A stretch of 56,237 nucleotides of DNA, filler included, from Sphacelaria rigidula (lineage: Eukaryota): NCBI GenBank assembly GCA_964200075.2. It is 3 parts of 3 records of this genome, joined end to end, with 100 filler letters (N's around TTAATTAATTAA, not from the genome) between each part and the next. Parts side by side here need not be neighbours in the genome. Positions count along the whole stretch, not along the records: positions 18,789 to 37,472 come from CAXNAA020000815.1; 2 more parts are not named here. One strand, 5' to 3'. A model generated the notes under the pieces. That model was given only the letters and a program-made list of their open reading frames with translations, had not been told where the DNA came from and did no database searches. Positions 1,454 through 38,219 of this stretch are shown piece by piece; the stretch's first letter is position 1, and each line of letters opens with the position of its first letter. The translations under genes and the position numbers were made by a program.

Positions 1454-3450
1454 GAACCTGCACTGCTGTTGGAGGCTGTGAGTGGCGCCCGGTGCGGCGG
1501 CTCGCGGGAGCGCGGCGGCGGCCGCAGGGGTGGCTTTTGTGCTGTGGCGAGCAACTGTGGAGAGGGAAAGGGACCGTATGGTGCAGTTTCGTGCTGACCG
1601 GCTGCTGTGGAAGTACAGTGTGTGTTTGGCACGGGGCAGAGAACGGGCAGAGGGGGGGGAGGGGGGCGTTCACACAGGGGTCTGTAGCAATAAATTAGGG
1701 GTGACAGGCCGGAGGTCTTCCAGGTCATAAGGACTGACGATTTGATTACCCTAATGGGATGCAAAGGTTGCCAGCCAAATGTCGAGTTTTTTTTTTTAAT
1801 GACGACAATACACCTTACGGACAATAAGGGGCACAAGGGTCAAGAGCGAGATAAATAAAGGGATGATAAAAATAGCGATAGGGGGGGAGGGAGAGAGGGA
1901 TCTGTGATGATGGCGGGCAGTTCGGTCGTATTCCAATTCGAAAGCTGCAGAAGTTCATGTTTTCACAGTTTTTCTCAAGAACTGAGTTATGAAGAGTCAG
2001 CCGACGAGCAGCAGATCATGATAGATTCGTAATATTTAGTCAGGTGCTCAGGGTGAGATGCAGGAGGCCCAACATTCAGCGACGATGGAAGATGACCATG
2101 ACCTCGGCTATCCGCACACATCCAACTGAAGACTGAACTTGAACGCATTGTTTGGGTCATAGCTGTAAACGATCGAAGGGTCTTTGGGAGTTTTGACTGT
2201 TGATGTTTGTGATTTGGCCTGACCATTTGTGGCAAGTGTACTCCAGTGGTAACAGGCTGCTGGGTTTCCTCGGGTCGGCGAACTATACGAAAGACCGGAG
2301 CCGAGTGCCTGCGCACATAACCCAGTAGGGCAAAATGGGACAAGGGGTACGAGTATTTTACTCTACTGTTGTTGTACTGTCTTCGCAAACATCTGCTCGT
2401 GATGAGTTTGTTTTGCTCCGTCTTCCCTGTTGCATCATCCATGAATCGAGGCCACCAGAGGTAGATTATGTGTGAGGATCAGCTGCGACATGCCCTGCCG
2501 AAATCCGTTCTTCGGGGGCAGTCAAGCTATCCATTGAGTTACAGTTGCGTAATGTCACAGTACTGGTATGTAGAGAACAGTCAGTTCGGTAGATGACCGT
2601 ACGATAACAGTACAACAGTCAATTTCGAGGCAGTTCAGTCCCACCGTTGTAAGTACTGAAGCTATCTTACTTTCGCCAACTGTAGTAAAGAGTTACTGCA
2701 CACGTGTCATAGGATCTCGCTCACCAACGGAGCGAGCGTCACGACAACGTGCATTCTGTTGCACGCGTAGCTATCGAGGCTACCACTGACAGTCGGCACA
2801 CCTCTGGCCAAACGGGGGGCTTTCAACAGTTGGGTCGCATAAGTCGCTTTCGGTGGTCATGCATTGCCAGAGCAACTTGGTATTGAAATCTCACCTGACG
2901 CACACGCCACCACCCACCGCCCTCGGCGCGCATCTTGCGAATTTTACGAGAAACGACGACATGATTCTCGATGCTGTGATGCCGGGAGCTCGGACAAGCC
3001 AGGCAAGGGGCGGATAGGGGGGCAAAGGCAGGTGCGTGGCTGTCGTCTGAAACACTGTAGGGCACTTCTGTAGTAATTAAACTTATGCGTGTCATTTTGA
3101 AGTTCAGTCGCATGGCTCTTGTCATTATCCATGATCTTTGCTTGAGCTAGTGGGGGGACTTGGGGGGGAGGTTGAGCGCTGGATTTCATTCATACCATAC
3201 AACAAACTAGAGGCGCTAGCTACTGTTGCACCTGTCACCTATAGAGGTGCTGATTTTCCACCTGCCTGATACCCAAGCGCATACAGAACGACACACTCCA
3301 TCCGCAATACACTGGTTTTATCGTTTTCGTGGTTCATCATTATCGCTTAGCGATAGAGCAGAGAGTCATCACCGTTGGTTCGCGGAACGCAGAGACGCGG
3401 GCCTGCCGTGTTCGAAGACCGATTTTGCGGCGCTCTACTAGGAAATCATT

Positions 3451-6400
3451 ATGTCTTTCGATGATAAGGGCACGAGGCTCCACGGTCGACTGGAGTTTTT
3501 CGATCGCAACGTTACGCAGCTCACCAAGCATTTGGCGCAGATCGTCGGCCATCATCAAGGCAAGCGGTACTTTGATTTTCACGTTTTTCAGGGAAAGCAG
3601 TGCCCCGTGGACAAGCCCACATACATATGCACATGTAGCATACATATGCACATGTAGCCTGGCAAGCTACAACAATACAATATAGTACAGGCAGTAGGTT
3701 TGCTGTTGTCCTCGTGACGCGAACATCGCACATGCCAACATGTGGTTCGGCTGTAAATAAAGAGCATCGCAACGCTCCCTTTTAATGTACCGGTGCGTCG
3801 GCGTTGCTGCCTTTGTGGTACCGAGACGCCACAAGTACATACCCAGCACGCTGGTGATGAGACTGGATGCAATATGATCAACGGAGCTGAACTGCTGTGT
3901 GAAACACCTACATACTTACTCGGAGAGACCTTACTGATACCGCTGTAGATATCAATAGATGCTATTTAGGCGACACGAACAAGGCTGCACTTAATTGACA
4001 TATCTAGACCATAAACAAGCTCACAAAGCACCAGGGGGTTCAATAGACCGGAAGTTTGGATATCAACCCATCCCCCCCGGGGGGAAAGAAAAACTTCAAT
4101 TTTAGGCTCTCGAAAGTTGAAAAATGAAGAATCACACTATTATACTACTCGCTGCCTCATGATCTCAATTGATGCGTCCCTTACTCGCATGGTAACAGGA
4201 GCCCTTGGCTTCCGTTGTGTGGCAGTACAGTACTGATATCAGGAGTACATATACAAGGGTGTGGCAAAAATTATAAAAACGCCTTTAGAGTACTTTCTAT
4301 CTGGTTGTGGTGCTGCTGCAACAGCAGCATTTATTTTTAGTCGTACCCCCAGGCACCACCAGCAGGGGAGTGCTTCGTTCGCGAACGAGGCCCACGCACA
4401 GTAGCGAATACAGTGCAGGTCTATCTGGCCGATACATCGGTCTGAGGCAAAGCTCATGTCCCTGTTCAGGGTGGGTACAGAGTGGCGGGACGTGTGATAC
4501 ATATCGTTGGTGGAAAGCGGGCGAGTTTTACTGGATTGTAAGACGGGGGGCGAAAGACCCCGTTGGACGAGGAGTACAACGACCACCACCCCGACAGGGG
4601 GGTGGACAATGGCCAGGTTACAGATGGACAGTCTTGGGTTTGTAGGTAAGCGTGTCGGATATAGAGGGGGGTGGATATCATGTCACCCCCTATCTACGGC
4701 GGTATTAGCTCTACCTGGTTGTTTGCCGAAGAAAAAAAATCTTGATTCTACATGTCATGTAAATCCAACCTTTTCACCCACAAATCATCATCTATTTTCA
4801 ATTTACACTACAGTACAATACAAGTGGTTCACATGTTGACAACATTATGTGCAAATGACAAGATCTTAACTATTAAACGTCTCGGATATCGAGAGATGGT
4901 AATCACACTTGGAGTATACACCGATTTGTGGATCACTGAAGCGGACAACGGTATAATACGGCGCCTGTAAAACTTGATCGGAGGAGTCATACTTTAGTTG
5001 TAGGATAAAGACCAATTCTCTTTTGTCTCCTTTTGTACAGAGGGCGTGTCGCACGGTGTCAAGTTCAGCGCGCAGGTCAAGACGATAGCGGCACAAGAGC
5101 CATTTCCAGAACTTCAAGACAGACTCGTTGGCTTGTCAGAAATCACCGAAAGGATTGCTCTTGAGAGGAAAAACATCATGGTGAGACCTCCTAGTGAAGA
5201 GTCGTTCCTTAAGTCGTTTTCCTCCAATCTGCTGTCTAGTGCTAGATGGCCTGGCGACGAGTGCAACTCGACAAAATGGTCAAAAGGGAGTATTTTGTTG
5301 TGGCGAACCAGCGCGCACATTGCTTAGTGGAGATCGGTTGGAAAACGCAGCGCTGTTTTTGCTCTTTTGTGGCGTTGCTGAAGATACCCAACCCCAGGAT
5401 TTCCGTTAAACAAATTGATCTGACTGTCACACAAGGTCGCAGAATTGCTCAGAGCAATACCCGCGCGAGCTATGGAAGTTTCTGTATGGTCAGCAAGGCG
5501 ATCGTATGTCCAACGCTTCTCAAGTACCCTGTTGCGTGGGGACGTACATAACGTGCCCAGACAAATATCATTGCCCTTTCGCTGTGAGTACGCTCGTGCA
5601 CGAGTGGCGGTTTTTGGCGATTTTCCGGCTGTTACAGTTGATTGACAAAATCTTCGATCTCATACAATGGGAGCGACCATCTAGTACCACCGGTATCCGG
5701 AGGTCGCCAGAGAATTGAGTGGGGGAACCCAGAAATGATGCATTCATGGCAACCTTATTATCGAATGGCTCAGGGATACGACACGATGCGTGCGGAACGA
5801 TACAAAACAATCGGGTACGGTGGATACAGTATGAAGGGCTCTACTTACACCCAGCACGGGACAATTGACCGACTTCTTCATGTTATATTGCATTCGTCAT
5901 TCAATCTATGTCGTGCCGTCGATCTGCAGCACCATCGGGCAAATAGAGAAGTACTGGCAAAACTGGCCGACATAAGGAAACGCGTCATCACTCCGACTCA
6001 GGTGCGGCTATTCAGATGTGATAAGGGTATTCTCATCGAATGCACTACAGCACCCACTGCCACTTCAATAACGGCACTACCCCAGATACTCGCGTTCTGG
6101 TAAACGACGATATTTTTTAATATTATTACTCCTGGCCAGCGCACAGGTGTTCGAGCTCTAAAACTCGGTAGACCAGAGCGGTTCTACCAACGGCGTCTCA
6201 GCGATGCTACCTCAAGCACGCCAGTCGCACTCCCCCACGCTGATCACCCAATGCATAGGTATTTACACCAATATTCACCTTCGCCGATGGTGATCAACAA
6301 CACACGAATTGTGGTCTCGCTCACGCAGGCCTTGCTGCAGGACAGGGATAGCTGTGTCAAAACTTTACTGAAGGCCGAAGATAAAGCGGCAGGTGAGCAC

Positions 6401-8115
6401 ACCGTCGTCTCCGCGCCTCGGAAGGGAAACCGACAAATACGAGCACCGCGCACTCGCACCATGCGGTGCGGTAGTGACGGCGCGAAAGTTTGATTCATGT
6501 ATGTACTCTCATCGTCCACCCATCTTTTCCTTCGTACACGCTAGCCTGTCATGACCTCGTTGCAGGTTCGACAAATCCGACTTGTCGCGTGTCGCTGCCC
6601 GCAGCGATCACTTGTAATCGCTTATTTTCACCGCTGACCTAAATCTTATGGCAGCGGTTCTCAATTCGTTCATGTGTATCACGAGCTTACAGTTCGCAGC
6701 CGACCAATCTACAAGAGGTGGTATGGCGCCGCCTGTTCGTTTGACGACGGCATAGTTTTGGGCTCATCCTGGTTGATGGACAACGGACCGTTTGTGACAA
6801 CAGTGTCCCTCTTTGTTTGTTTCACCAATTGCCTTCGTGTCGTGGGCTCTGTGTAGATGATCGGGCGAACGGACTAAACGACGAGGCCGGCGTAGCGACC
6901 CTAGAACACCGCCACCGGCTGATGAACGTAGAGACCACGGTGGACAATAACTTCGAGCTCTTCGAGGCGCAGAGGGTAGAAGAAATTAAGGTGGCAGCAA
7001 TTCCAGCAAGAGATAATAAAGAGCCAACAACAAGTCAGGATACTCAGATCGCTTCCCCAACCGTTGATCAAGAAGCGGACATTTTGACGTTCAAATCATT
7101 GACCGTTCACTACAGGGCCAAACATTCCGCTTCTTGAACAAAAGATATGGTATGCGGTTCATCCCGGAATGGCAAATCAGAGATCTCCGGAGCTCTCCCT
7201 TCGCAGTCTCCCTGTTCACCATTCGAATTTTACGTCCAATCAATCAATCAAGAAGCGGGCATTTTGTCCTTTGAACCAGTGATTTTACTGGTTCAACCGT
7301 GAGCTGATATGCGTGATTTCTCGAGTTCTAACGAAGAGTATGCGACCGGTACAAAAGTGTTGTCCGACCGATTTTCCGCGTGCCCCCAGCCTACACCAAC
7401 ACTTGATCGGATGTTTCACAGGACAGCTACCCGTGAACGCTCCGACCATTAGGGTGGTGCAAACACTGCAAACATATGCACCTGCGCGGGTACTTATTTC
7501 GCGTCTTCACGACCTGTCCCCCTCCCACGTGTACGATCGGCCATAACCATCGCTGCAGGGTATATTGGAAGAGTTCCTTCGTTGCGAAATGTACTACCAC
7601 TGTCGAGCGCTGGAGATGCTAGCGCCGGCGCTGATGCACATCGGGGGAGTGGAAGCAGAATCAGCACGAGAGGTACGCTTGTTCTTCTACTTCCCTGACC
7701 CCCCAAATACTTTGAGAGTGGTTTATAAGATGGCCTCTGATACGTATCATGTGTTGAGTATATTGACTGGGGGAGCGTCTTTCAAGAAAGCGTGCCCGTG
7801 TGCGCATTCGTCACCGACAAGAATTCTGCCTCCATGGCATGTAGGTTGCGACCCCCACAGTGAGGGAGGGACCTGTGTAAGCACTACGTGTAGACATATA
7901 CCGCACATGCGACACGAGTATCCCCGGCTCAGGAAATCGTAACGTCATCATTGTCATGGCCCATCTTAAGGACGGGAACGAATCTATACGGTACAAGGCA
8001 GCTCTTTGCCTAAACGTCCCTGCCTCTGTCTCTTGCCTTCTTGCCTGCCCTTCGTACCTGGCAGCACGTACGGAAGGACATTGAGGGCATGAACAAGCAC
8101 CTGCGCTACACATGA
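3451..8115 (+). CDS. FAM92: FAM92/CIBAR-like (CBY1-interacting) BAR-domain protein, 7 exons, 227 aa
   Basis: Phase-consistent exons 3451-3559, 5041-5180, 5930-6001, 6329-6392, 6857-6990, 7559-7672, 8065-8115 (684 nt incl. TGA). The segment FEAQRVEEIKGILEEFLRCEMYYHCRALE resembles the FAM92 C-terminal BAR signature as I recall it (FE.Q....IK.I..EF...EM..H..ALE). Helical/coiled-coil composition throughout. Intron 1 is GC-AG, the others GT-AG. Confidence 0.8.
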
Positions 8116-9933
8116 CCGGACGATCGCGATTTCAACAGCTTTACGATGGAGGGAGCATTCGCCTGAATAAGCGCATCGGTGCATCAGGCGTGGAGCCTCA
8201 ATTAGAGTTGTGAATCGATCGCTTGCTTCACTCCATCAGAATCAGTTTTGCTGACCACACTGCTGCTCGACATGCCCATGGTACCGACAAGTAGAAAGCT
8301 TGTCGTTGAGCCAATTCGTGGTCAGGAAAATCGACACATCTCACTTTCCTGGTAGGCCTATGGAACAACACGATGGTACGTATGTTGGGTGTGAGCCAGG
8401 GTGACGAAAGGCGGCAATGCGCACATGAAGCCATTGGAGCTACAGTGGTCCCATGGCAGCCGTGGCAATCCTGGGTCTGCCTAGCGACCTTGGGGTGAAC
8501 ACTGGAAAACTCCTCGAAGGGCTATTTTGGGAGATACATTTCATGCTTAGATCCATGCAGTAGTCTAGTAGTTTTTTATGCTTACTGCAAATAGATTGCT
8601 CCCGCCCCTCATCACATGGCAGGATCGAGCGGGGTAGGATTCCCAGGGGTTACTGAAATGACCGGAAGAGACAGGATGCTCCAAACACGTGGTCAATGTG
8701 GTATCTTGCTGGACTTTCGAAGCGCATGTTTTTTGCCTGTATCCTGTGCGAAGATGTTCAGTTCATAGTTGCAGCGCGCACAATCGCGTGGGATTGATGC
8801 ATTTAGCTGTCGCCCATCACATAGGTGGACATGTTTTGCCGTGAGGACCTTGCGGACGACTATGTGAAAATTACTTGGACAAATATTTGATCGGTTGACA
8901 TTTGAGTGCTTTGAGATTCAGACTATTCGGGACGGATGCTAGTCCGGAATAGCTTGTGTGTTTCTACCACGCATCTATCCTTCCCCCCTCCTTCGGACGA
9001 GTCCGCCGTCTCAAGGAAACTCATCTCTACCCTGGCGTTGCCTGGTAATTTGTTTCCTAACATTGGGTCAGCACTGCCGTAGCCCATTTCTCTTTTTCGA
9101 TTTGTATGCTACTCACTTCCTCACGGCTCCCGCGCCGGAGATCAACAAAAAATAACATCAGTGCTGTCGGCATTTGAGCCCGCGCATCCATCCATACTGA
9201 CCGATGATGCACCAATTGGAGTACCAGGGCTCGGCGAGCTGTTGTGCAGCAGAACGATTGTGAACGAAGATGAAGTTATGCGTTCGGTAGTCATAGCGTA
9301 CTGTCATATCGACACGACTGTCAGTTCAATCGCGTTCCCTGTCTTGCATTGGAGGGGCACTTTCTTCGCGTCTCTTTGATATTATCAACATTCTGTCGTG
9401 TTTGTACGTTTCCTTTTCGGAGATTTCCCCTTTGGTGGTAGCTGTTCCGTTCCGTGTCCTGTATAGTTGCTCTCCGATTGTTCGTGGCAGGTATTTATCG
9501 ACAATGCAGTGTCCAGTGAGAAAGGAAAACGGATGCTTTGCCACGGCGTGCTATTTTTTTTCCGACACAGAGCTTGTGACTTCATGCTGAACCTACACGT
9601 TGCCATGTCCCTTCATAATATTTTCACCTATGTTGGTGCCAGAGAAACGAGTGTCCCAGCGAAGACAGTATGTATACTACTACGATCGAAGGGGTTTCAA
9701 TTTCTGCATATCACACGCGCCAGTGTACTTGAAGAAAGGACATCGTTACACAGAGATGAAGCAATGCCTGGGGAACACTAGCGACCAGGGCGTGTGAGAG
9801 TCCCTTACATACACACATTTGCCCGGATGTGAGCGGTTGGAGTCGGCGCCCTCCTCCTCGACACATTTACTCCCTGCAAAGACGTCACGATCCGCAATGA
9901 GTTACCCAGACACTCAGTCAATGCTGACCGAGA

Positions 9934-10091
9934 GTCCGAGTGGCTCAGTGGTTATTGCAGCGTCTTGATATCAACTACTCCGGATTCCCCCTAACTATTA
10001 CCACCGCGTCCTGGTGCTCTGAATTAAAAATATACTGGTGTACCAACAGCCCGTTGGCGCGAAAGGTTGCGGGTTCAAATCCCGATAGACA
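9934..10091 (+). pseudogene. Degenerate intron-containing tRNA-like sequence (apparent anticodon GAT)
   Basis: A box TGGCTCAGTGG (9941) and B box GGTTCAAATCC (10072). Anticodon stem GCGTC (9960-64) pairs with GGCGC (10056-60). Loop TT-GAT-A is followed by an ~84-nt insert at the canonical 37/38 position. The D stem and acceptor stem are mismatched, so it is called a pseudogene. Confidence 0.55.
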
Positions 10092-13000
10092 AGGTATCCT
10101 TGAGCAGAATACGGATTCCGTCGTTTAAAGCGCGCGGGTGTGATCAGCCAAGAAAATTCGACGGGAAGTAAACGCGGTGCACGAGTGCTGATGTGATCCA
10201 GGATACCAAAATATCAGGTAGGTGCCGCGGACAAGGATGACTAAATATCTCGGGACTACGGACTCCCCCCCGAAAAAGACGAGGTGTATAAAGCACGATG
10301 AAAAAGGTAAATATTATTTTCCTCAAATTATCTAAGGTATCGCGAAAAAAATTGGGGAGTTCAAGGTTGCCGTACCTCCATTAAATTCCGTTTCGGTGGG
10401 ACCCATGGCGCGTACAACGATGCCGACGGTATCGAAATAGAGATCGTTCAGAAACCCATAGCTCAAGCTTTCGAGAACAGAAAAACCAACATCCAACTAA
10501 AGTCCATAGGCGCTAGTGAGGCATAGTCTGGTTGGCATTGGAAAAACAGCCAAAACAACCAAATGTTCCAATTAAAAATACTTTACACAACGGTCGATTT
10601 CACGCAACCTGAAAAAATAATGGCACGTTCTCCTTGGTAGATTTCTCCTGGTCACCCCGGGGGACACCTTCTTGCATCTCCACTCTTCTAACCACAAGTG
10701 CATCCAATTTCATGCTCCTGGAAAAGGTAAAACGTCATCTTCAAGGTGCGATAGAACGTACCACATCAGACATTTCAACCCTACATGCAGTAGAAACCAG
10801 GGGATGGTTTCCTGCTGGTCACCTCGCCCCCCGCCGTGACACTACTGGGACATATTTCCACGCGTCTAGAAGAGCTGGGCGTCACTGACACGTACATGTC
10901 CAAACAGTACCTATATTCCGGCTTTCAAAACTGTACTTATATTTCCGGCAAGACTGGTAAAAAACAGGCGCAACCAGACGTGAAATGCCCAACTCTTCGG
11001 GGATTTATAATCGAATGTATGCATGAGTATGTTGATTGACAGTGTATCTCGAAGAGGATACTTAGCCTGAATGATAAGGCACTTATCGCAGAGCAAGGGC
11101 TTTTCCCCCGTGGTGTTCGACTGTAGCTGACATGAGTTGCGTGCTCTCCGAAATGCGCCTCGACGTTGTTCAGCGGTTCACCTTGTCGAACCTGATTGAG
11201 CGCATTTCACAACCCGCCATGAATGGTGTGTACCATAGCCAGATGTCCATAGGTACTGCGATAGGGTGCCTTGAGTTTCACGGCGCCTACGTTGCAGTGA
11301 GGTCGGTAACTGGCAATACCCTTACAACGTTCGGTCTACACTGATCAAACTCATCGTGACGGCTTTATTACGGTTTGGGACTACATAATAAGAAACAGAG
11401 TTGCCAGTTAACCTCCATCCAACAAAAATGTAGATGGTTGGGGAATTAGGGAGCTATGGCACTGCCATCAGCCCTTGTGCTGTTTTCTGCGGAGAATCCA
11501 CAGGGACAGCGGCTGCCAGATGCGTCTATATCCATTTTTGTCGACACCATTGACAACTTTACAATTATTACGCTCGACAATCCCGCCCGCATCGGGCCAC
11601 CTTTTCCCACCCAGGTCTAAAACTGGAGTGCAGTGCCAACAAGGTTTCTCCGCTAGTCTCCCCACTGCGTCGGTGGATACCCGAAGCATCAGTTTCTACC
11701 CAAGATACGCTTCCAACGGCAGACGGATGATGTTTGTAGCAGTGCGCCCCATCCGGTATCGCAGCTTTGCTACTAAACGATTCGTCTGGTTTCCAACTGC
11801 CCCCGGAGAAAGTGGGAGCGATACTCCAGGCTGTCCTGTGGGATTCAGTCAATCTATTCTAGTGCCTTGGCTGGTTAAATAGGAAAAGGGGTAGGGAGGG
11901 TTGACGGGAAAGGAGCAGGGTCGGCGGGAAGCGGAGCGAGGAACATGTTCAGTGTGGGGCACAACATGTTCACGGAATCTATGTAGTTTGTGACAGGGGC
12001 GTATGTTCGTAGTTTGTAACGGAAGATCATGAAATGACCTACGGAATCACCCCTCTGCGTGTACCGTCGCGCGCACAAGGCTCCGAATTCTCGAGGAAAG
12101 CAAGGAACACACGCTGGCTATGCAGCCTGGACGAATCAACAGTGAAGAAAATGCTTGAGGACCGCCGTCTACCGATCATCATTTTGTACCACAGTGAACA
12201 CGCGTGGGGTTCCCCAATAGGAGAGGTGCACCAGCTACATACGCACACCAACATACCCTGTCTCGTAACTGCATACGGCAGGTCCCGCCATTGAGTTGAT
12301 TTTCGTTAATGTGAACAGGACATAGTGCTGTTGCTAATCGCAGCCTGTGCGATGCCTATAGGTTTTCGGGAGGCGCGTGCACTGAAACTTGCTACATCGG
12401 CATACTACGGCGGGACACGCACCTCTTCAATTTGCATGGTCTAGACTAACTTAGTACAAACCTTGCGTCATCCCCGTTGAGCCACCAGCTGTCACGCCGG
12501 ACTTTTTTTTCCAACGAGCTAACGGATGTGTCCCTCGACCTGCAGCCCCGAAACTTGGCTTCGATGTTGCTCGTCCTCCTCCTTTTTATGTTTGCGGGTG
12601 TACTTGAATGAAGCTATAGCCGAGGCTGTGATGCTGCTTTATGTATACCCATGAACGGCATGCCGATACACGGGCAAAGCGGAGTTTTCCGACGTGTATC
12701 CTACATGGCACAACTTTTGACCTGTGGATAAGATTGTCGGCGGTCAGCAAGCGCAGCGTTGGGACATTTCTGGCACCTACTCTGTGATGATGTAGGGGAG
12801 CAGATTGTGGATGCGGCTTCCGGAGGGAAAGGCGTGGTTGATAGGTCGCCATTGGCGCGGAAAATCATCATACCCTTGTACTTCGTATTGACTCAACTGT
12901 CTGCAATTGAACCAGCTTTGGTAAGTGTGAACAGAGCCCCAACACAACAGCTGCAGGACGCACACCGCACCACTCCACTGCTAAGCTTTTCTGTTGTATT

Positions 13001-13388
13001 AGCCGTAGTTGGCACCCACCCACTTGAGGGGAAAATCGGCGCCGACAACTCGCCGCGCCAGCTGTTAATCCACCCGTCATATCTACACACGCATTTACAG
13101 CACTCCTCTCCACAACCGTACAGAATTCCTATAGGATAAGTAAAAGGGTCGCGACAAATGCTCACAGCATTCTGTACTGTCGTTGTGCTGTCGGTGTATG
13201 CACCGAAACATCATGTGTTTTTAGAGAGCAACATAACCATTCCGTGGCCGACCAAAACAACCTCGACAGTTCTCAACGGAGACAGCCCACGTCTCGTTTA
13301 GCCGCTGAAGACTATCAGTCCAAAATTTTCATGTGTACTCTCATGAGATATGTTTAGCTACTGTGCTCGGTATGCCGGCTATCTCAGC

Positions 13389-13688
13389 CCTGGCGAGCGA
13401 GGTTGGCGCGTGCGTAGCGGAGGAAGGGTGTGCAGAAAGGGTCGTCTTTACGCTCCACCTAGAGGTGATGAGGTCAACCCTGCAACCGGCCAGAATACCC
13501 GCAACATCTTTTCATTTGTGCAGTCCACATCTTTTCAAGTACTGCATTGATCCAGTTCAAACTTGGCATGAACAATCCATGGGATACTCAGAACAGTCGT
13601 GCTGAGTTTCTGGGTTTCCCAGACCTGACGGCCGAGGTCGGCGCGTGCGGAGCGAGGAAGGCGTACGCAAAGTGGTCGTTTCCGCGCG
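13389..13688. repeat. Diverged ~65-bp direct repeat, ~235-bp spacing
   Basis: GAGGTTGGCGCGTGCGTAGCGGAGGAAGG (13399) vs GAGGTCGGCGCGTGCGGAGCGAGGAAGG (13634). Confidence 0.6.
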
Positions 13689-14390
13689 TTTTGGCCCAAG
13701 GTGAACAGCGTCACCGTCCGTTCTAGGCTCGTACCGCATAGGTGAAAATAGTTCCACTTGCTCACGCTCCTCCATAGACACGTCATGGGTTCATATATAT
13801 CTCCTGGGGCTTGCACCTTCCTCGATGCTCAGATCTTGCCTGGTGCAGCTTGTGGTCCGCCCTACCATCGTCGGAGGCAAAGTCGAACTTGCTTGCAACA
13901 CGTTATTTTCCAGGTTGACCACCACAAAAAATAATCCAGGTACCCGCAGATACCGTCATATTTTTCATTCGGCGTTTGCTTCGGTTACATTTTGTGGGCA
14001 TAGTGAGTGAGTGACATGCATCAAGTACATTTGCCTCAACTAGTACGTGTGCGGTTTCTTATTCCATGGCTGGCTACAAAAATCAGTCTTTGAATGGCGT
14101 CTACGGTAATTACTCTTTGCATCAGTGACGTTCATACCGTAGTCATTTGGGAGTGTCTCAGGATAACCACGTGACATCCGCAAATACGCCTCCATATTCT
14201 TTCTGATTTGGATTATGACAATTCCAGCCATTGTTGCAGGACCTGGTGGGTTGTGTTGTCTACCGTACCGCGCGGTACTGTTTACCTGTACGTCTGTTAT
14301 ACAGCATTGCAGAGCGCATCGACTTTGGCCACACGGACCGCCTAGGAGATAACGGTAGTAGAACTCACTGTCTAGCTTTGCGAACAAGCA

Positions 14391-16701
14391 ATGTCCTCGC
14401 CAGCGAACTCGGACAGCCGCAGAAGTGATAGCGAGGAGGAGGAGAGCTCAGGCGATGATCAGCCGCTATTCAAATTTGCCTCACGAGGTGAGAGATCAGT
14501 CCTACGGTAGATGAGTGTATAGTGTGGCATACTTATTGTTGACGGATACAAGTATCGTACATCTGCTGTTGGTATGGTCGGTCGTGCACCTCAAGGGCTT
14601 ACTGCTATGCGTGTAGGGATCAGTAGGAAATGCGGGTCGGTTTGCTTTTTGACGATTGAGGCATGATGAGTCGACAACTTGAGGCTTGAAATTTGCGCGC
14701 TCTTTCCGAGTGTCGAATCTGTTCTGCTTTGTGTGCTCCCTCAGACTACGGTGTGTATACCGACTGGGCGTCCGAGAAGCAAATTCCACCCAAAGAGGAG
14801 TGGAGAATTGTGTACCCTCCCAATGCTTCCCCCATCTCCTCCCACACGCGAGTAGAGTAATTGCGTGTGAATTTCACTAAGGTGCAGGCAAGAAACCGCC
14901 GACTACGGTATGACCATTCCATTCTTGTTAAGCGTCCACAAGACGAGAAAGCAGAAACTGGGGCAGAGCACGCGACAGACGGGTCCCTCTGCTGCCGGAG
15001 GCAAAGGTCTACATGATTCCATCCCCCGGCCAAGTTTTGCAATCCCGATTTTATGGTCACCCTCGGTGTTCGCGCCGATGAAAGCTGTGTCGCTGGTAGT
15101 ACAATAACGTTTCATTACTTCGGTAGCGAGATCCATTAAATACTTGGCAAGACTCAGAGGAGTACGTGAACGGCTGTATAATAGGTAAATGTAAAGGACC
15201 TCCCACCATATTTGCATCGTCGACGCCAAACGATTACTCCATGTGCCTAGTACCTTGTTGTGGCCACAAGGTTGCGGCTTCGGAGTCTTGCCTTATAACC
15301 ACCACCCAAATGAATACATGTTGGAGTTCGGCAAAGTTGGGAGGAGAACGAAATGCTCCAAAATAGACCTGGAACGCGAGCACGATGCACGAACGCACGG
15401 ACTAGTCTTTCACTGGGACTGGGAATATGGAGGCCAAGTTTTTAATGGGCAAATCGCCTTGTCCATGGAGCACCCGACACCCTTTACACAAAATCACGGT
15501 TTTTACATCATTAGCATAGGGTGCATCATGGGTACTCCAGACACAACTTGCATCAAACGCGCAGCTTCTGCTGTTGAACGATGTTACGACTACCGCTGTG
15601 CGGTGTAGAAGACCATCGTCCGCTGGAGGGCCAGACAGGATTTCCCTCCGACGCGATTGTGATGGTGGGAGCGAGGCAACGTTCGTTAGGGAGATGTAAG
15701 GGTCTGTAAAGCCTTGCTCTAGTGCTCGCTTTCTTGGCATCAACTTTTACTCTCTTTCAGCGGAGCACAAGATGTTTTGGTTCGTCGTGGTGGTCGTTCC
15801 TCGCAAGGAGCTGAAAATATTGGTTGTGTTCATCTGGCAACAGCATCTTTCATATCAATGAAGCCGGGAGCTCGTGTTGCCATGTATTCGTTCATCGCAC
15901 CAACACAGCAAGACCCCAAAACGCGGGACAAATTTTATGCGTACAGTCTGTGCTGAGAAGACAGCAATCTTGTTGCTCTTGATGCTCTCGAATCACACCC
16001 GCAGACTTCAGGCCAAAAGCCGCATCCGAAGAGGATTCGGACGGAAGCGGATCTGGGAATGCCAGCTCGAACTCTGACGATTCCGATTCTGATGGCGCAT
16101 TCAATTCCTCTCCTGATAACAGGTATGTTACACACGAGGTGTTGAGACGAAATATTTTATTCCAACCGATCCTGTGAGTCACCACTCTGCGTCGGGTCCT
16201 TTGAAAAGTGCCGTGCATGGGGAGATGCGGCGACGGAATTGCAAACGGCAAGCTATAAGTGAATAACGGGGCTCTCGGAAGCAAATTCTGCAGTGATGCG
16301 AACCAAATGATGCTGCGACTTGGTTTCTGAGAGGAACACAAGACATATGATCTGGCAACCAGGAACACCACCCAAAAGCATTTTATGTCACACACATGCG
16401 CATATCACAGGTCGCGAGGCGCGTTGTTGACTACCTTAGAAGCCAGGAAGGCACGCGGTGGCGCCGTGGCCGCGGCTTCCGCCGCCAGTGGGGCCCGCGC
16501 GGGGAGCGCCAACGACTCGTTCACCCTGGACAGCTCGGATGATGACCACCAGATTGAACCTCCGCAACAACGGCGACGACTTATGGACCCCGAGGAAATG
16601 CTGGTGGAAGCGCGGCGGAGGGCGGAAGAGATGATTGCGAGTGGGGGAGGCGGGAGCGGCTCGCGCGATGCGGCGCTCGAGCGGAAACAACAGGCAAACA
16701 G
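14391..16701 (+). CDS. Unknown protein, 5' partial (acidic/Ser-rich N-terminus followed by a charged helical segment); 3' exons not found before the gap
   Basis: Phase-consistent exons: 14391-14487 (MSSPANSDSRRSDSEEEESSGDDQPLFKFASR, donor G|GTGAG); 16005-16122 (DFRPKAASEEDSDGSGSGNASSNSDDSDSDG..., AG|GTATG); 16411-~16701 (SRGALLTTLEARKARGG...FTLDSSDDD...EARRRAEEM...RKQQAN, probable GC donor AG|GCGAG). Confidence 0.7.
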
Positions 16702-18688: not shown

Positions 18689-18788
18689 NNNNNNNNNNNN
18701 NNNNNNNNNNNNNNNNNNNNNNNNNNNNNNNNTTAATTAATTAANNNNNNNNNNNNNNNNNNNNNNNNNNNNNNNNNNNNNNNNNNNN
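18689..18788. other. Assembly gap with artificial TTAATTAATTAA linker
   Basis: 100 nt: N44-TTAATTAATTAA (18733-18744)-N44. The linker has stops in all six frames, and an identical linker lies at 37473-37572. Confidence 0.95.
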
Positions 18789-18913
18789 ATCTAGTCGGGT
18801 CCCGTTGATGTCTCGTGGAAGCGCGTCCCGCCCGTGCGTAGGCGTGACAAAGTTGTAGGGACGGTGGGAAACACGATCTGATTCGGTCCACGCTCCTTTC
18901 CAACACCGTGCAG

Positions 18914-18982
18914 GCATCCCATCGTCCCTCGGGCAGCTCGGGAACCTGCAGTATCTTAACCTCGGCTCCAACCGGCTGAGCG
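18914..18982 (+). CDS. LRR exon A of the ROCO gene (GIPSSLGQLGNLQYLNLGSNRLS)
   Basis: gtgcag|GC...AGC G|gtgagt; phase 1-1, 69 nt; LxxLxLxxNxL consensus. Confidence 0.92.
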
Positions 18983-21900
18983 GTGAGTGTGTGGAACAAA
19001 TCAGCGTGTGTGGGAGCAGGGGCAACGTCGGAACTGTGGAGGATGCGATCTAGTCGGGTCCCGTTGATGTCTCGTGGAAGCGCGTCCCGCCCGTGCGTAG
19101 GCGTGACAAAGTTGTAGGGACGGTGGGAAACACGATCTGATTTGGTCCACGCTCCTTTCCAACACCGTGCAGGCATCCCATCGTCCCTCGGGCAGCTCGG
19201 GAACCTGGAGTATCTTGACCTCCGCTACAACCAGCTGAGCGGTGAGTGTGTGGAACAGATCAGCTTGTGTGGGAGCAGGGGCAATGTTGGAACTCTGGAG
19301 ATGAGGTCAATCTGCGTCCCGTCAACAATGGCACGTGGGACTGCAAAAGGCGATCATCGTCATCTTTTCGTCGGTCAACCTCGGAAACCTCTAGTCGTGG
19401 AGAACAAATAAAGATATGCTGTTGGACCAGCCTACAACCGGCTTGTTATCGAGGTAATGGACAAAGGTAAACATATTGGGTATGAACATGAGATTTCGAA
19501 AACAGCTGATGGGACTATTTCGGAGGTGGATGAGGGCACGCGTCAATGCTGGAGATTATATTTTCGTCTCGTCTTCGGGAGCTTCACAACGTTCGCTTGC
19601 GATACTTTCATCCTCCGTTCGTCAAAACGCGTTTTCCTTTGGAGGTGTCCCGGCCATACGTCGGTGAGTAGGCCATCGCTGGAATATGGTGCCGTCTCCG
19701 ACCGCTTCGTACGTGAAGGGCGAGAACAACGTCTTGATGGTTGCTCGGAAACGTGACCTCTCCACCTCCGCTATGGTTCTGCTGTAGCTTGGAGTGGTCT
19801 TCGAACATTTTCGAAGGTGCTGCTCGTGATCGTGTGCAAAATGGACACCAGCATCGTAGGCAAGATGCGTCGCTGCTCTTGGTCTACACGTTGAATGGTT
19901 GCAGGTTGTCTTGGTGATGCCGGAATACCCCCTGCAGGTCATGCGGGGAATGTGCATCGTTCAAGCTCCCCGGCAGAAGCAGATGTTTACTTTGTTCACT
20001 GCTGTCGAAGTTCTCTGTATTCTTCACCACCTACCGATCACGCCGCGTGTCAATGCAGGACTTTGGAACACGCTTGGGCTGACGGATCAGGCTGGGTCAA
20101 ACGTGGCCGGGCCAGGTGGGTCGGATGAGTTGCCCGGCTATAAAAACATGCGGATATCTGATTTCGTTTCGTGGGGGTACATTGCTTATCGTTCTCTTGT
20201 GTTGTAGGAGCGTCTCACACTTGCGAAGTCGGAGGCTTGGATTGGGAAAACGGACTCTGCTCGAAGGTTCACTTTTATGTATGATGAACACACGGGTATG
20301 TCTGCTGAGCGTTCCAAGAATATTGATGCGGATCAAAGAATGTAATACCGTGTATTTTGCTCGACATGCTGCTCACTCGTGGCGTAGCCCTATCTTCGCT
20401 CACCATCTGTTGCATAACGGGAGGCTACTGTGAAGCGCAGTCTGATCGTCTCGTGCGTGCTTGTGTAGGCGGTGGAAACACTGATAACTCGCAAGGAGGA
20501 TATACCGGCCGGTCCATTCAGGGGCCGGTCGCCCCGGTTGCTCAGTAGGGAACGGAGCGATCTGGAATCTTTTCTCATACCATGCCCAACAGTGGAGAGC
20601 GTCTATGTCGTGGGTACACAAAGTTCGGCTCAACGGTCGACGAGGGAAGGAGATTGCTGAACCCCTGTCGCGATAAAAATGAAGAAGAAAAGCTCGTGTC
20701 TTGACCTTCCTCCTGTGTGACCCCGGCTGATGCACCCACATACACCGAAAGGTGTAGACACTGGTGCCCAGAATAAATGGGACGACAACACATATACCCC
20801 CGAATTGATGTTGGATTTCTCAGTAGGCACCAGGTTCAAAACAACCTGTCTGTGAGACTCGACAGCTCCGCCTCACCCGAAGAATGCAATGTCGGGAAAG
20901 CGGCCTGGTCGGTGTTGAGGCATGAGATGTGTGGGATGCACTCGATTGTACAACACGATGGTTCCATGTTTCCGCCCAACCACATGCTGTACGTCTCATT
21001 TTGGCTATTTCAAGGTACTCTCCCGGGAGCATTGGCCTCTCTCCTTGACATGTTCGACAGGACACGAATTTTGTACCTTGAGCAAAACCCGTGGGAGCAC
21101 CCTCCCGAGTCAATCGTGGCGGGCGGTATGTCGGCGGTGAGAAGTTACTTCGAAGCCATATTCAGCGACGGAACATCCACTGTGACCCGACCACTCAAGG
21201 TTGTCATCATTGGCAAGGAGACGGTTGGCAAGACAAGGTACGAGTTGCATTCCTCGTCTTGTGCATGGTCGACTTTGACCCCACCACTCAAGGTTGCCAT
21301 CGTTGGAAAGGAGACTGTAGGCGAGACGAGGCACGGCGATGAATCCTTGTGATTGTCGCAAACTACACCTAATGCTGCTGACAAGCCACAGAACGACCGT
21401 GCTAAACGGGTTTTTGTAACGTGGGAGAAATCTGTGTTGAAAGGATCGTGCACTCTCTGCACTGCCACAGTTTGCGGCGCAGCATCACGACCGGGAAGCC
21501 ATGCATGACCAGAAAAGGTGGTCAGGAAAGCACTGTCCACGTGGATGTCGAAGATCACACGGTCAATGGTCATCGAATTCGAATGTTTGATTGTGCCGGC
21601 CAGGTGAGACATTCTGATCCTATGGGTACGCTCACGTGATGTGTCGATGCACTTTTCCACTTGGAGTTGTGTGGTGGTCACAGACAGCTTTCATAGTTCT
21701 CTAGCTTGTCGCATGACATCTTCGCCTGGAATTGACACGGTGTCACTGATGTTCTTAGGCTCATACCGCGATCAGCTATAGTCAAATTACCGTCGATGCC
21801 TCGGTCTTGATGGTGAGAAGCAGGAGCCCACGGGCGAATTCGTAGTCTCGAAGTTCGGTATCATGTCGAGAACGCATCACTCCTGCTGCGAAGTTATTGC

Positions 21901-36031: not shown

Positions 36032-38219
36032 CGAGCTGGGCCAGCCTATAAACGGATTTAAGCTCTCAAAGGTATATCTCAACGACACAGACGAGTTGGC
36101 CCGTGATCCGCACATCGTATTAATCGTCTAATCAAGGGGAAGGTGCTCATCTGCTCGAAAATCTGGGGGCACTTTTTTTCTCGTCCATTGAACCCCATGT
36201 CTAGTAATTTCTGTACCTAGCGGATATAGCGTCCACACTAAAATCTATGTGGAACCCCGAACGATCGATTAAGCGGATGATGACGATTTTTGTTGTGGGC
36301 CTTCCCTGGAGCACGGGATAATGATAGATACCCTCAGCTCACCAAATTCGTAATCCATCCCGACATATGGCGCATATAGATTTCAATATTAAAATCAGTA
36401 TATTACAAGCAGAGGCACTAGATGACCTAAATCTGGATATCGCGTCTCAGTTTTTGAGAGTTGTGCTATGGAATTTGGTATTGAGAACTGCTAGTGCACG
36501 ATGAAATAAAGAACACAGCTTTTTCCTTCTTTTTTTTTTCGTTTTTTTTCAATTTGTTTCGTGTTTTCAGGGGAGTTTTGAGCAGAAAGGAACATTGCTC
36601 TTGGGCCTNNNNNNNNNCAATTTTTTTTTTTTTGTTTTGAAACTTGGCATGGAGAACGACAGAGGTATCCTGAGTGAAAAAAAAAATGGGCCTCCGTTTT
36701 ATTTTATTTCATGAGAGGTTCGGGCGTTCTCGTCAAAAAATGGTCGTTAACATACTAAAACGCCCACAATCAGTGAAAAAAGAAATAGAAACCGACCTCA
36801 CATATGTTCTTGGTTCATCATGACCTGGCGAGGTCCCGCACAAAATTTCAACCCACAAATACCAAACGTGGGCCCATAAACGGTGTGCAAAACACTGTTC
36901 CGAATTCCCCGGCCCGGTTTTTCAAACGTAAATTCGCAATTTTTTTCTTGGAGTTGGACAGTGAAACTTGGTATGGACAATCAATAGGACATGAAGAAAA
37001 GCTGTCTATGAGGTCCCGATTTTTTTTTTTCAATGAGTTAAGGGCAATAATCAGTTTCGAGGTTTTAGTAACATATCCTTCACTCACGAAAAAAAAAAAC
37101 TTCGGGACCTCACAGATAGCTTTTCTTCATGCCTTATTATAGGTATCTCAAACTCGGCTTCCGGTATCCTGGTTTATTCGTTGGCTCTGAGTTGTGTATT
37201 ATTTTTTCAAGTGAAAGTGATCGCGATTCACGGGAGAACCTGACCCGGCGGTCAAAGGGTCTCATCATTTGATGAATCGGCATCACTATCACTTGAAAAA
37301 GTAGAACGAAACAAGCCAGGATGCCGCAAGCCGAGTTCGAGATATCTCTATCGATTGTCCATACCAAATTTCACTTTCCAACTCGAGGAAAAAAATTGCC
37401 AAGTCTCCTTCTTCTTTTTTCCCTCACACTTTGAACCCCTCCCCTTCCTCGGGATGAGGCCGTGGTCTCAAGNNNNNNNNNNNNNNNNNNNNNNNNNNNN
37501 NNNNNNNNNNNNNNNNTTAATTAATTAANNNNNNNNNNNNNNNNNNNNNNNNNNNNNNNNNNNNNNNNNNNNAACTAACGTCAAGTTTCTGAGTTCTACT
37601 TTTACATCTGTGATTTCAAACTTGGCATGGAGGACCAGGAAGGTACTCGGAAAAAAAAAAAAAAAAGTGGGCCTTCACTTTTTTCTTGTCATGGTGGTTA
37701 GGGCTTTATAGTGAAAAAATGGTCTTTACCATGCTAACACGCCCTCAACCGGTGAAAAAATGAAAACAAAAAAATCTGGTCCACTGAGTTTTGTTGATTA
37801 TGCCCTGGCGAGGGCCGACACAAGTTTTCAATACACGAAAACCAAACGTGGGCCGGTGAGCGGCCGGCGAAATACTGTTCCGAATTCCTACCGATCCGGT
37901 TTTTAGAAGGCGAATGCGCCGGCCAATATTTGGAGTTAGACCATGAAATTTGGTATGGATAATGCATGGGGCATAATAAAAAATCGTAAAGAAGCACATT
38001 GAAGTTTTTTTTCCGTGAGATGAGGGCAATGATCAGTTTTCAGGTTTCAGCAAAACGCCCTTATCTCACGAAAAAAAACAAAAAACCTTAATGTGCTTTT
38101 TCATGATTTTTTATTATGACCCATGCATTATCCATACCAAATTTCATGGTCTAACTCCAAATATTGGCCGGCGCATCCGCCTGCAAGCTTTCATGCAGCC
38201 TCTAGGCTGGCCCAGCTCG
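36032..38219. mobile_element. CGAGCTGGGCC-family TIR element(s) spanning an assembly gap
   Basis: Left end 36032; right end TAGGCTGGCCCAGCTCG|TA at 38219. An ~85-bp inverted repeat with few mismatches lies at 37914-38000 / 38090-38176. The two halves may be different copies joined at the gap. Confidence 0.7.
37473..37572. other. Assembly gap with artificial TTAATTAATTAA linker
   Basis: N44-TTAATTAATTAA-N44. A further 9-N gap lies at 36609-36617. Confidence 0.95.

Follow-up and report, generated by a model that had tools for sequence, protein, structure and literature searches.

Whether two leucine-rich repeat (LRR) exons standing in tandem belong to a system that diversifies receptors is the question raised by positions 18789-19300 of a 56,237-nt stretch of DNA from Sphacelaria rigidula (GCA_964200075.2), referred to here as the window. 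A preliminary description of this DNA had proposed an array of LRR exon cassettes with variation confined to ligand-facing codons, in which the introns are homogenised while the binding residues diversify. The analysis reported here identifies the two units as the final pair of LRR cassettes in a canonical brown-algal LRR-ROC-COR (ROCO) GTPase gene, extending from 18789 to about 25851 on the + strand. We regard the identity of the repeat as a ROCO LRR cassette array as close to certain. In the brown algae, which lack receptors of the plant or animal type, ROCO genes are the foremost candidates for pathogen receptors.

Tandem Repeats Finder reports a single array at 18789-19300, with a period of 259, 2.0 copies, 95% matches and a score of 947, and a second repeat search aligned 253 nt between the units at an identity of 96% and a spacing of 259. 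The first cassette unit (259 bp, 18789..19047, + strand) consists of an intron of 125 nt, an LRR exon and an intron of 65 nt. The second (19048..19306, + strand) is homologous to the first up to 19300, the homology between the units stopping at 19042/19301. The LRR exons are located at 18914..18982 (translation GIPSSLGQLGNLQYLNLGSNRLS) and 19173..19241 (translation GIPSSLGQLGNLEYLDLRYNQLS), both on the + strand, 69 nt long, in phase 1/1 and bounded by AG/GT. A pyrimidine-rich tract and ...ccgtgcag stand before each of them, and gtgagtg comes after. The phase is symmetrical, the first two bases completing a codon and the final base opening the next, and each of the two exons holds one LRR between its splice sites. 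Two 259-bp tandem units, each a 69-nt phase-1/1 LRR exon plus intron, had been described beforehand; Tandem Repeats Finder and the sequence itself confirm them, and a recount of the exon and intron differences found all numbers given for them to be correct. When the unit was aligned locally to both strands of 19295-20100, no further, diverged unit emerged (top scores 19 and 17). Inverted repeats of at least 25 nt are absent from 18789-26000, and with them any sign of terminal inverted repeats flanking the cassette.

A hidden Markov model (HMM) built from the LRRs of homologues scores the first LRR exon at 29.0 bits (E 9.8e-8) and the second at 28.8 bits. Run in six frames over the 56-kb window, the same model returns the two LRR exons only (E ~1e-7 each), with no extra non-coding or reverse-strand LRR exons of the kind that would be a sign of shuffling. 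Pfam LRR_1 gives 17.2 bits on the first exon, under its cut-off of 20.6. The translation of this exon fits the consensus GxxPxxLxxxxxLxxLxLxxNxLx, with one residue missing after the G.

The attribution to a ROCO gene is borne out by what lies downstream, since ROC and COR exons follow the cassettes on the same strand, as detected by tblastn and Pfam COR-B. When the homologous proteins P0002, P0009 and P0013 were compared by tblastn, linker, cap, ROC, COR and C-terminus were found colinear over 20013-25851 on the strand of the array. The linker exon (20059..20115, 57 nt, + strand, phase 1/1, GLWNTLG...) has AG/GT sites and an RNA-like joint and matches residues 224-257 of P0002; its GLWNTLG corresponds to the GLWHTLG or GLWDVLG that follows the last LRR in homologues. 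It is followed on the + strand by an exon at 21015..21237 that holds the cap (GTLPGALASLLD...NPWEHPP) and the first part of ROC, including the P-loop GKETVGKT (tblastn identity of 66-68% to P0002 and P0009), by a ROC exon at 21471..21603 ending in DCAGQ of switch II (81% identity by tblastn, AG/GT sites, a spliced contig) and by a ROC exon at 22042..22590 with NKWD, placed from the sequence and by tblastn (57-60% identity over 185 aa). Further along the same strand, an exon between ROC and COR was placed by tblastn at 22845..22961, its 5' limit being approximate as the acceptor may lie near 22790, and the COR exon at 23284..24012 reaches 27.8 bits with Pfam COR-B (PF25497; cut-off 27). Two C-terminal exons, both on the + strand and with approximate limits, close the gene according to tblastn, one at 24264..24479 and the last at 25546..25851, the latter matching the C-termini of P0002, P0009 and P0013. 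The six exons in 18914-22588 join without a stop codon. Pfam run on the split ROC exons taken singly gave no match.

A search with the COR exon retrieved 33 ROCO homologues, the best at 69% identity. Those with a named source are from brown algae (Ectocarpus species, Scytosiphon, Pylaiella, Laminaria, Sphacelaria and Hapterophycus) or are EukProt records. One of them is annotated as 'LRR-GTPase of the ROCO family', and many carry Roc, Ras and LRR Pfam domains, PF08477 and PF00071 among them. The protein search with the cap exon gave 28 homologues, relatives at no more than 80% identity only, and recovered no transcripts of the organism itself with LRR arrays. In metagenome contigs, the exact 35-nt pattern of the exon framework had 0 matches, and of 31 pattern stretches from the COR alignment 0 were confirmed by tblastn. 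A small feature was observed inside the gene itself: the intron after the P-loop exon repeats 67 nt of that exon's end (21176-21242) at 21269-21335, with 84% identity and 93 nt further downstream. The donor GT having become GC in this copy, it makes a small tandem pseudo-exon.

Upstream of the linker, the homologues have about 225-290 residues, made up of an N-terminal cap and 7-14 LRRs. Only 46 residues are present here, so the gene is truncated at its 5' side by the contig boundary. That boundary is marked by a spacer, N44 + TTAATTAATTAA + N44, at 18689..18788 (no strand), after which the gene-carrying contig starts at 18789. An identical spacer recurs at 37473-37572. We take these spacers to be artificial joins between separately assembled contigs, so the sequence to the left of 18789 is unrelated to the array. 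At least three such contigs appear to be strung together in the window, and sequences across spacers need not be genomic neighbours. The array does adjoin the gap as had been described, the spacer ending at 18788 and the array beginning at the next position. The N-terminal cap and further LRR exons would lie beyond the contig end; genes of this family are characterised by an LRRNT-like cap and a block of up to about 18 or more LRRs.

How many such units exist was approached through public sequencing runs, for which the evidence consists of Logan contigs only, at a likeness of at least 95%, and the depths are sums and not copy numbers. In two runs, X1 and X3, introns are covered evenly, as in DNA. 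Their summed contig depth over 18789-19300 is 3290-8893 (X1) and 5560-15282 (X3), and the intron-only bins 18789-18916 and 19045-19172 lie equally within this high range. Flanking single-copy contigs with 0 differences have depths of 24.9-47.4 (X1) and 48.2-65.8 (X3). The cassette unit, intron included, therefore stands about 100-300x above its single-copy flanks in contig depth, from which it follows that many more units exist. The possibility that only these two units exist is contradicted by the contig depth in X1 and X3. The cassette together with its intron is a high-copy, near-identical sequence in this organism.

At 19711-20057 and 20879-21112, contigs of X1, X3 and X6 with 8-10 shared differences have 2-4x the depth of the perfectly matching ones, which suggests related paralogous ROCO loci that are about 3-4% diverged. 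Within the intron between linker and cap, 20453-20836 is a dispersed repeat of extremely high copy number with many internal joints and loose ends, its summed depth reaching 5e4-4.4e5 (X1) and 7e4-7e5 (X3) where single-copy sequence stands at about 30 and 58. The loose end before 20553 carries a GGTTCGATTCC resembling a tRNA B-box; ARAGORN and Rfam gave no match to it or elsewhere in 18789-26000. This repeat may be a short interspersed nuclear element (SINE) or a miniature inverted-repeat transposable element (MITE).

Two further runs, X5 and X6, were taken as RNA from the behaviour of their contigs and not from the run records. GT..AG joints at 20115/21015, 21237/21471 and 19241/19719 are seen in X5 and X6 and are absent from X1 and X3, indicating that X5 and X6 contain spliced RNA. 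The joint from 20113(+2) to 21013(+2) occurs in both X5 and X6, and that from 21235(+2) to 21469(+2) in X5. In both runs, exon bins are 6-16x deeper than intron bins. Contigs of X5 and X6 also join 19239-19242 back to 18913-18918, which is the end of one LRR exon to the start of another at the predicted boundaries. Some of these LRR-LRR joints enter exon starts like those of the window (G-IPS), others enter starts that are one codon longer (GHVPS, GDVPS, GDGPS and GDAPS), and at the loose ends 18915 and 19174 the same intron end runs into an exon start of the 72-nt type. As to the joint from 19241 to 19719, it is found in one X6 contig with a depth of 43, a shorter side of 22 letters and GT..AG ends; read in frame, it soon reaches a stop, the TGA at 19754-19756, and it represents a rare splice form, either alternative or aberrant.

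Next, the two units were compared position by position. Across the 253 nt that align, there is 1 difference in 125 nt in the upstream intron (18884), the first half of the exon 0 in 33, the second half of the exon 5 in 36 (18949, 18958, 18964, 18968 and 18974) and the downstream intron 5 in 59 (18999, 19006, 19026, 19029 and 19036). All five exon differences are non-synonymous (Q/E, N/D, G/R, S/Y and R/Q) and all five fall on x positions of LxxLxLxxNxL, with the first 33 nt of the exon being identical. The proposal that variation is confined to ligand-facing codons does not hold for the unit as a whole, in which 6 of the 11 differences are intronic. The related proposal, that introns are homogenised while binding residues diversify, finds no support at this locus: with 5/69 differences the exon does not exceed the downstream intron in divergence (Fisher p=1.0), and compared with all intron (6/184) the p-value is 0.18.

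A single change point accounts for the distribution along the unit. The best one lies at unit position 160, inside the exon, and separates 1/160 from 10/93 differences, a value reached by 0.25% of 20,000 shuffles (permutation p=0.0025). The pair is best described as a 5'/3' mosaic, a description to which we give about an even chance of being right. The pair would have arisen by unequal recombination between intron repeats. Its first 160 nt, comprising the upstream intron together with the exon's framework half, would have been shared or converted recently, and the last 93 nt, with the exon's beta-strand half and the downstream intron, would be older or of different origin. Such a mosaic might stem from an exchange with another family member or cassette, or from homogenisation being weaker at the array's 3' edge. 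The L and N framework would be kept by purifying selection, so that the surviving exon differences sit at x positions; in the protein, concave-face residues of the last repeat are predicted to be changed.

Several observations weigh against this reading of the locus as a mosaic pair within a ROCO gene. First, the exons do not have the published length of 72 nt (24 residues), both being 69 nt, and among the LRR spacings in 47 homologues, 24 residues occur in 88 and 23 residues in none. The residue missing from the 69-nt exon is the x of GxIP (G-IP here), which presumably lies on the convex side of the repeat. The exon is a variant one codon shorter than the canonical 72 nt, which still allows membership of the ROCO family. 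Secondly, the depth sums are not assignable to the locus at 18789-19300 itself. Thirdly, the spliced contigs differ by up to 5% from the window and may derive from paralogues, so that expression of this particular gene is putative. Fourthly, no contig spans both units among the matches listed, leaving the tandem order without independent confirmation. Finally, with two units only, a few substitutions might by sampling have produced the change point.

The missing bridge between the units is also what would be expected of an assembly artefact, in which collapse or stitching of a repeat at the end of a contig brought together units from different places or haplotypes. The array begins exactly at the contig end beside the artificial spacer, and the cassette is highly multi-copy, a situation in which assemblers break or mis-join. 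On the other hand, the intact remainder of a ROCO gene follows both units colinearly, no alternative letters at a frequency of at least 10% are present in X1 or X3 within 18789-19300 among the rows listed, and according to the main text of PMC3341825 tandem LRR exons with short introns are normal for the ROCO family. We consider an artefact quite unlikely.

The last of the points that speak against the mosaic concerns selection. In the model of the preliminary description, recombination or conversion keeps the introns alike and positive selection acts on concave-face codons, giving a modular receptor repertoire. The 5/5 exon differences that are non-synonymous and at x positions agree with it, as do the 1/125 of the upstream intron and the intron bins that are as deep as exon bins in the DNA-like runs. 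A post-hoc contrast over the seven x codons compares 5/17.2 non-synonymous sites with 5/59 in the downstream intron (p=0.039), and this nominal value makes diversifying selection on the pair a possibility. Positive selection is moreover published for the family, in the main text of PMC3341825 for the Ectocarpus concave-face sites 15, 17, 19 and (20) and in that of PMC11378527 for sites 14, 16, 18 and 19 in four brown algae. Yet divergence in the exon is no higher than in the downstream intron, five random single-base changes in the exon would all be non-synonymous with a probability of about 0.20, and at the rate of the downstream intron 0.75 synonymous differences are expected in the second half of the exon, with P(0)=0.47, so zero is expected by chance. 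The single 5'/3' change point explains the data without selection. Positive selection as the cause of this pattern is thus doubtful to us, though the most serious of the alternatives.

The variable positions themselves are those that vary in the family. In a 24-residue numbering (with an offset of one residue), the exon differences fall at positions 14, 17, 19, 20 and 22. The consensus of 111 homologue repeats is GxIPxELGxLxxLxxLxLxxNxLx, with entropy peaks at positions 15, 17 and 20. Among 91 close within-protein repeat pairs, taken from 9 homologues and mostly from one protein, P0016, position 15 differs in 82%, position 14 in 63%, position 20 in 59%, position 17 in 55%, position 9 in 44%, position 19 in 43% and position 5 in 38%. 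The variable exon positions resemble both the published selected sites and the sites that differ in these pairs. The five positions appear to fit the family pattern, a fit that, coming from two units, is inseparable from a mosaic combined with purifying selection. Two copies alone fail to demonstrate change confined to the binding face, and the selective reading is weak here.

The high copy number and the breakpoint inside the exon allow two stronger readings to be formulated. According to the first, a cassette of about 245-259 bp is kept at about 100 or more near-identical copies by ongoing templated conversion with breakpoints in the exon, the concave-face half being swapped blockwise at a rate sufficient for programmed diversification, in the germline or even somatically; this is very unlikely in our view. 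The second is a somatic system, resembling that of the variable lymphocyte receptors (VLRs) or based on copy choice, with cassettes serving as donors for copying into the ROCO genes of single cells. The cassette family is indeed large and near-identical, the mosaic breakpoint does lie inside the exon, and the main text of PMC3341825 puts somatic recombination forward for ROCO genes, only as a hypothesis and in explicit comparison with lamprey VLRs. Against this, the main text of PMC11378527, the only paper returned from the literature from 2013 on linking Ectocarpus ROCO genes with somatic recombination, states that somatic recombinant ROCO loci are unreported and prefers alternative splicing, and no joints occur within 18789-19300 in X1 or X3 among the matches listed, where the contigs are too short to show them. 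Such a somatic system is the least probable of all these readings, extremely so, and nothing observed requires a somatic mechanism. In contrast, ROCO identity and germline exon shuffling of the kind known from Ectocarpus ROCO genes are, taken jointly, very probable.

Elsewhere in the window, positions 1010-1669 on the - strand hold an open frame with a stretch (...GRAFVEVDTEADMQKVMELNGHTIDNRPVFVSR...) that may resemble an RNA recognition motif (RRM). It runs into a (CA)n microsatellite at 1074-1114.

Compared with known systems, the locus stands closest to the 'type I' LRR arrays of Ectocarpus. As described in the main text of Zambounis et al. (2012; PMC3341825), Ectocarpus ROCO genes have one 72-nt exon of this type per LRR and undergo intense exon shuffling, and interruptions of the assembly were noted in them. 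Shared with these arrays are exons that each encode a single LRR and split the codon alike at either end, the consensus G(x)xPxxLxxxxxLxxLxLxxNxLx, the order of array, linker, ROC and COR, the variable sites on the concave face and a proneness to assembly breaks. The exon here differs in being 69 nt long (23 residues, G-IP for GxIP) instead of 72 nt, and this window has no non-coding or reverse-strand LRR exon. In the main text of PMC3341825, conservation of introns between cassettes is not discussed and the terms '69 nucleotide', '23-amino' and 'gene conversion' are all absent, while its supplements may list other exon lengths.

According to the main text of Teng et al. (2024; PMC11378527), the ROCO genes of four brown algae show shuffling of LRR exons, which are also alternatively spliced, with up to 49 LRRs per gene. 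The LRR-ROC-COR architecture, the repeated LRR exons of equal length and the selected concave sites are common to those genes and to the one described here, and the spliced LRR-LRR joints in the RNA-like contigs are a further likeness. The split codon is called 'phase 2' in that text; the same split is phase 1 by the usual convention. Exons of 72 bp only are given there, '69 bp' and gene conversion being absent from the main text, and the supplements may differ. The idea of a receptor-diversifying system, put forward for this DNA, is already published, including somatic recombination and alternative splicing, in the main texts of both papers (PMC3341825 and PMC11378527). Whether ROCO LRR cassettes are rearranged somatically has been asked since 2012, and this locus adds no new principle.

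The VLR genes of jawless fish are assembled somatically from flanking cassettes without introns or splice sites. LRR modules are the units of variation and the variation lies on the concave face in both cases. The cassettes here, in contrast, are ordinary spliced exons in a germline gene. The object is a further brown-algal ROCO gene with LRR exon cassettes and not a new system. Particular to this locus are its 69-nt exon and a cassette that is highly multi-copy together with its intron, and such a near-identical sequence provides a convenient marker for cassette number, order and conversion.

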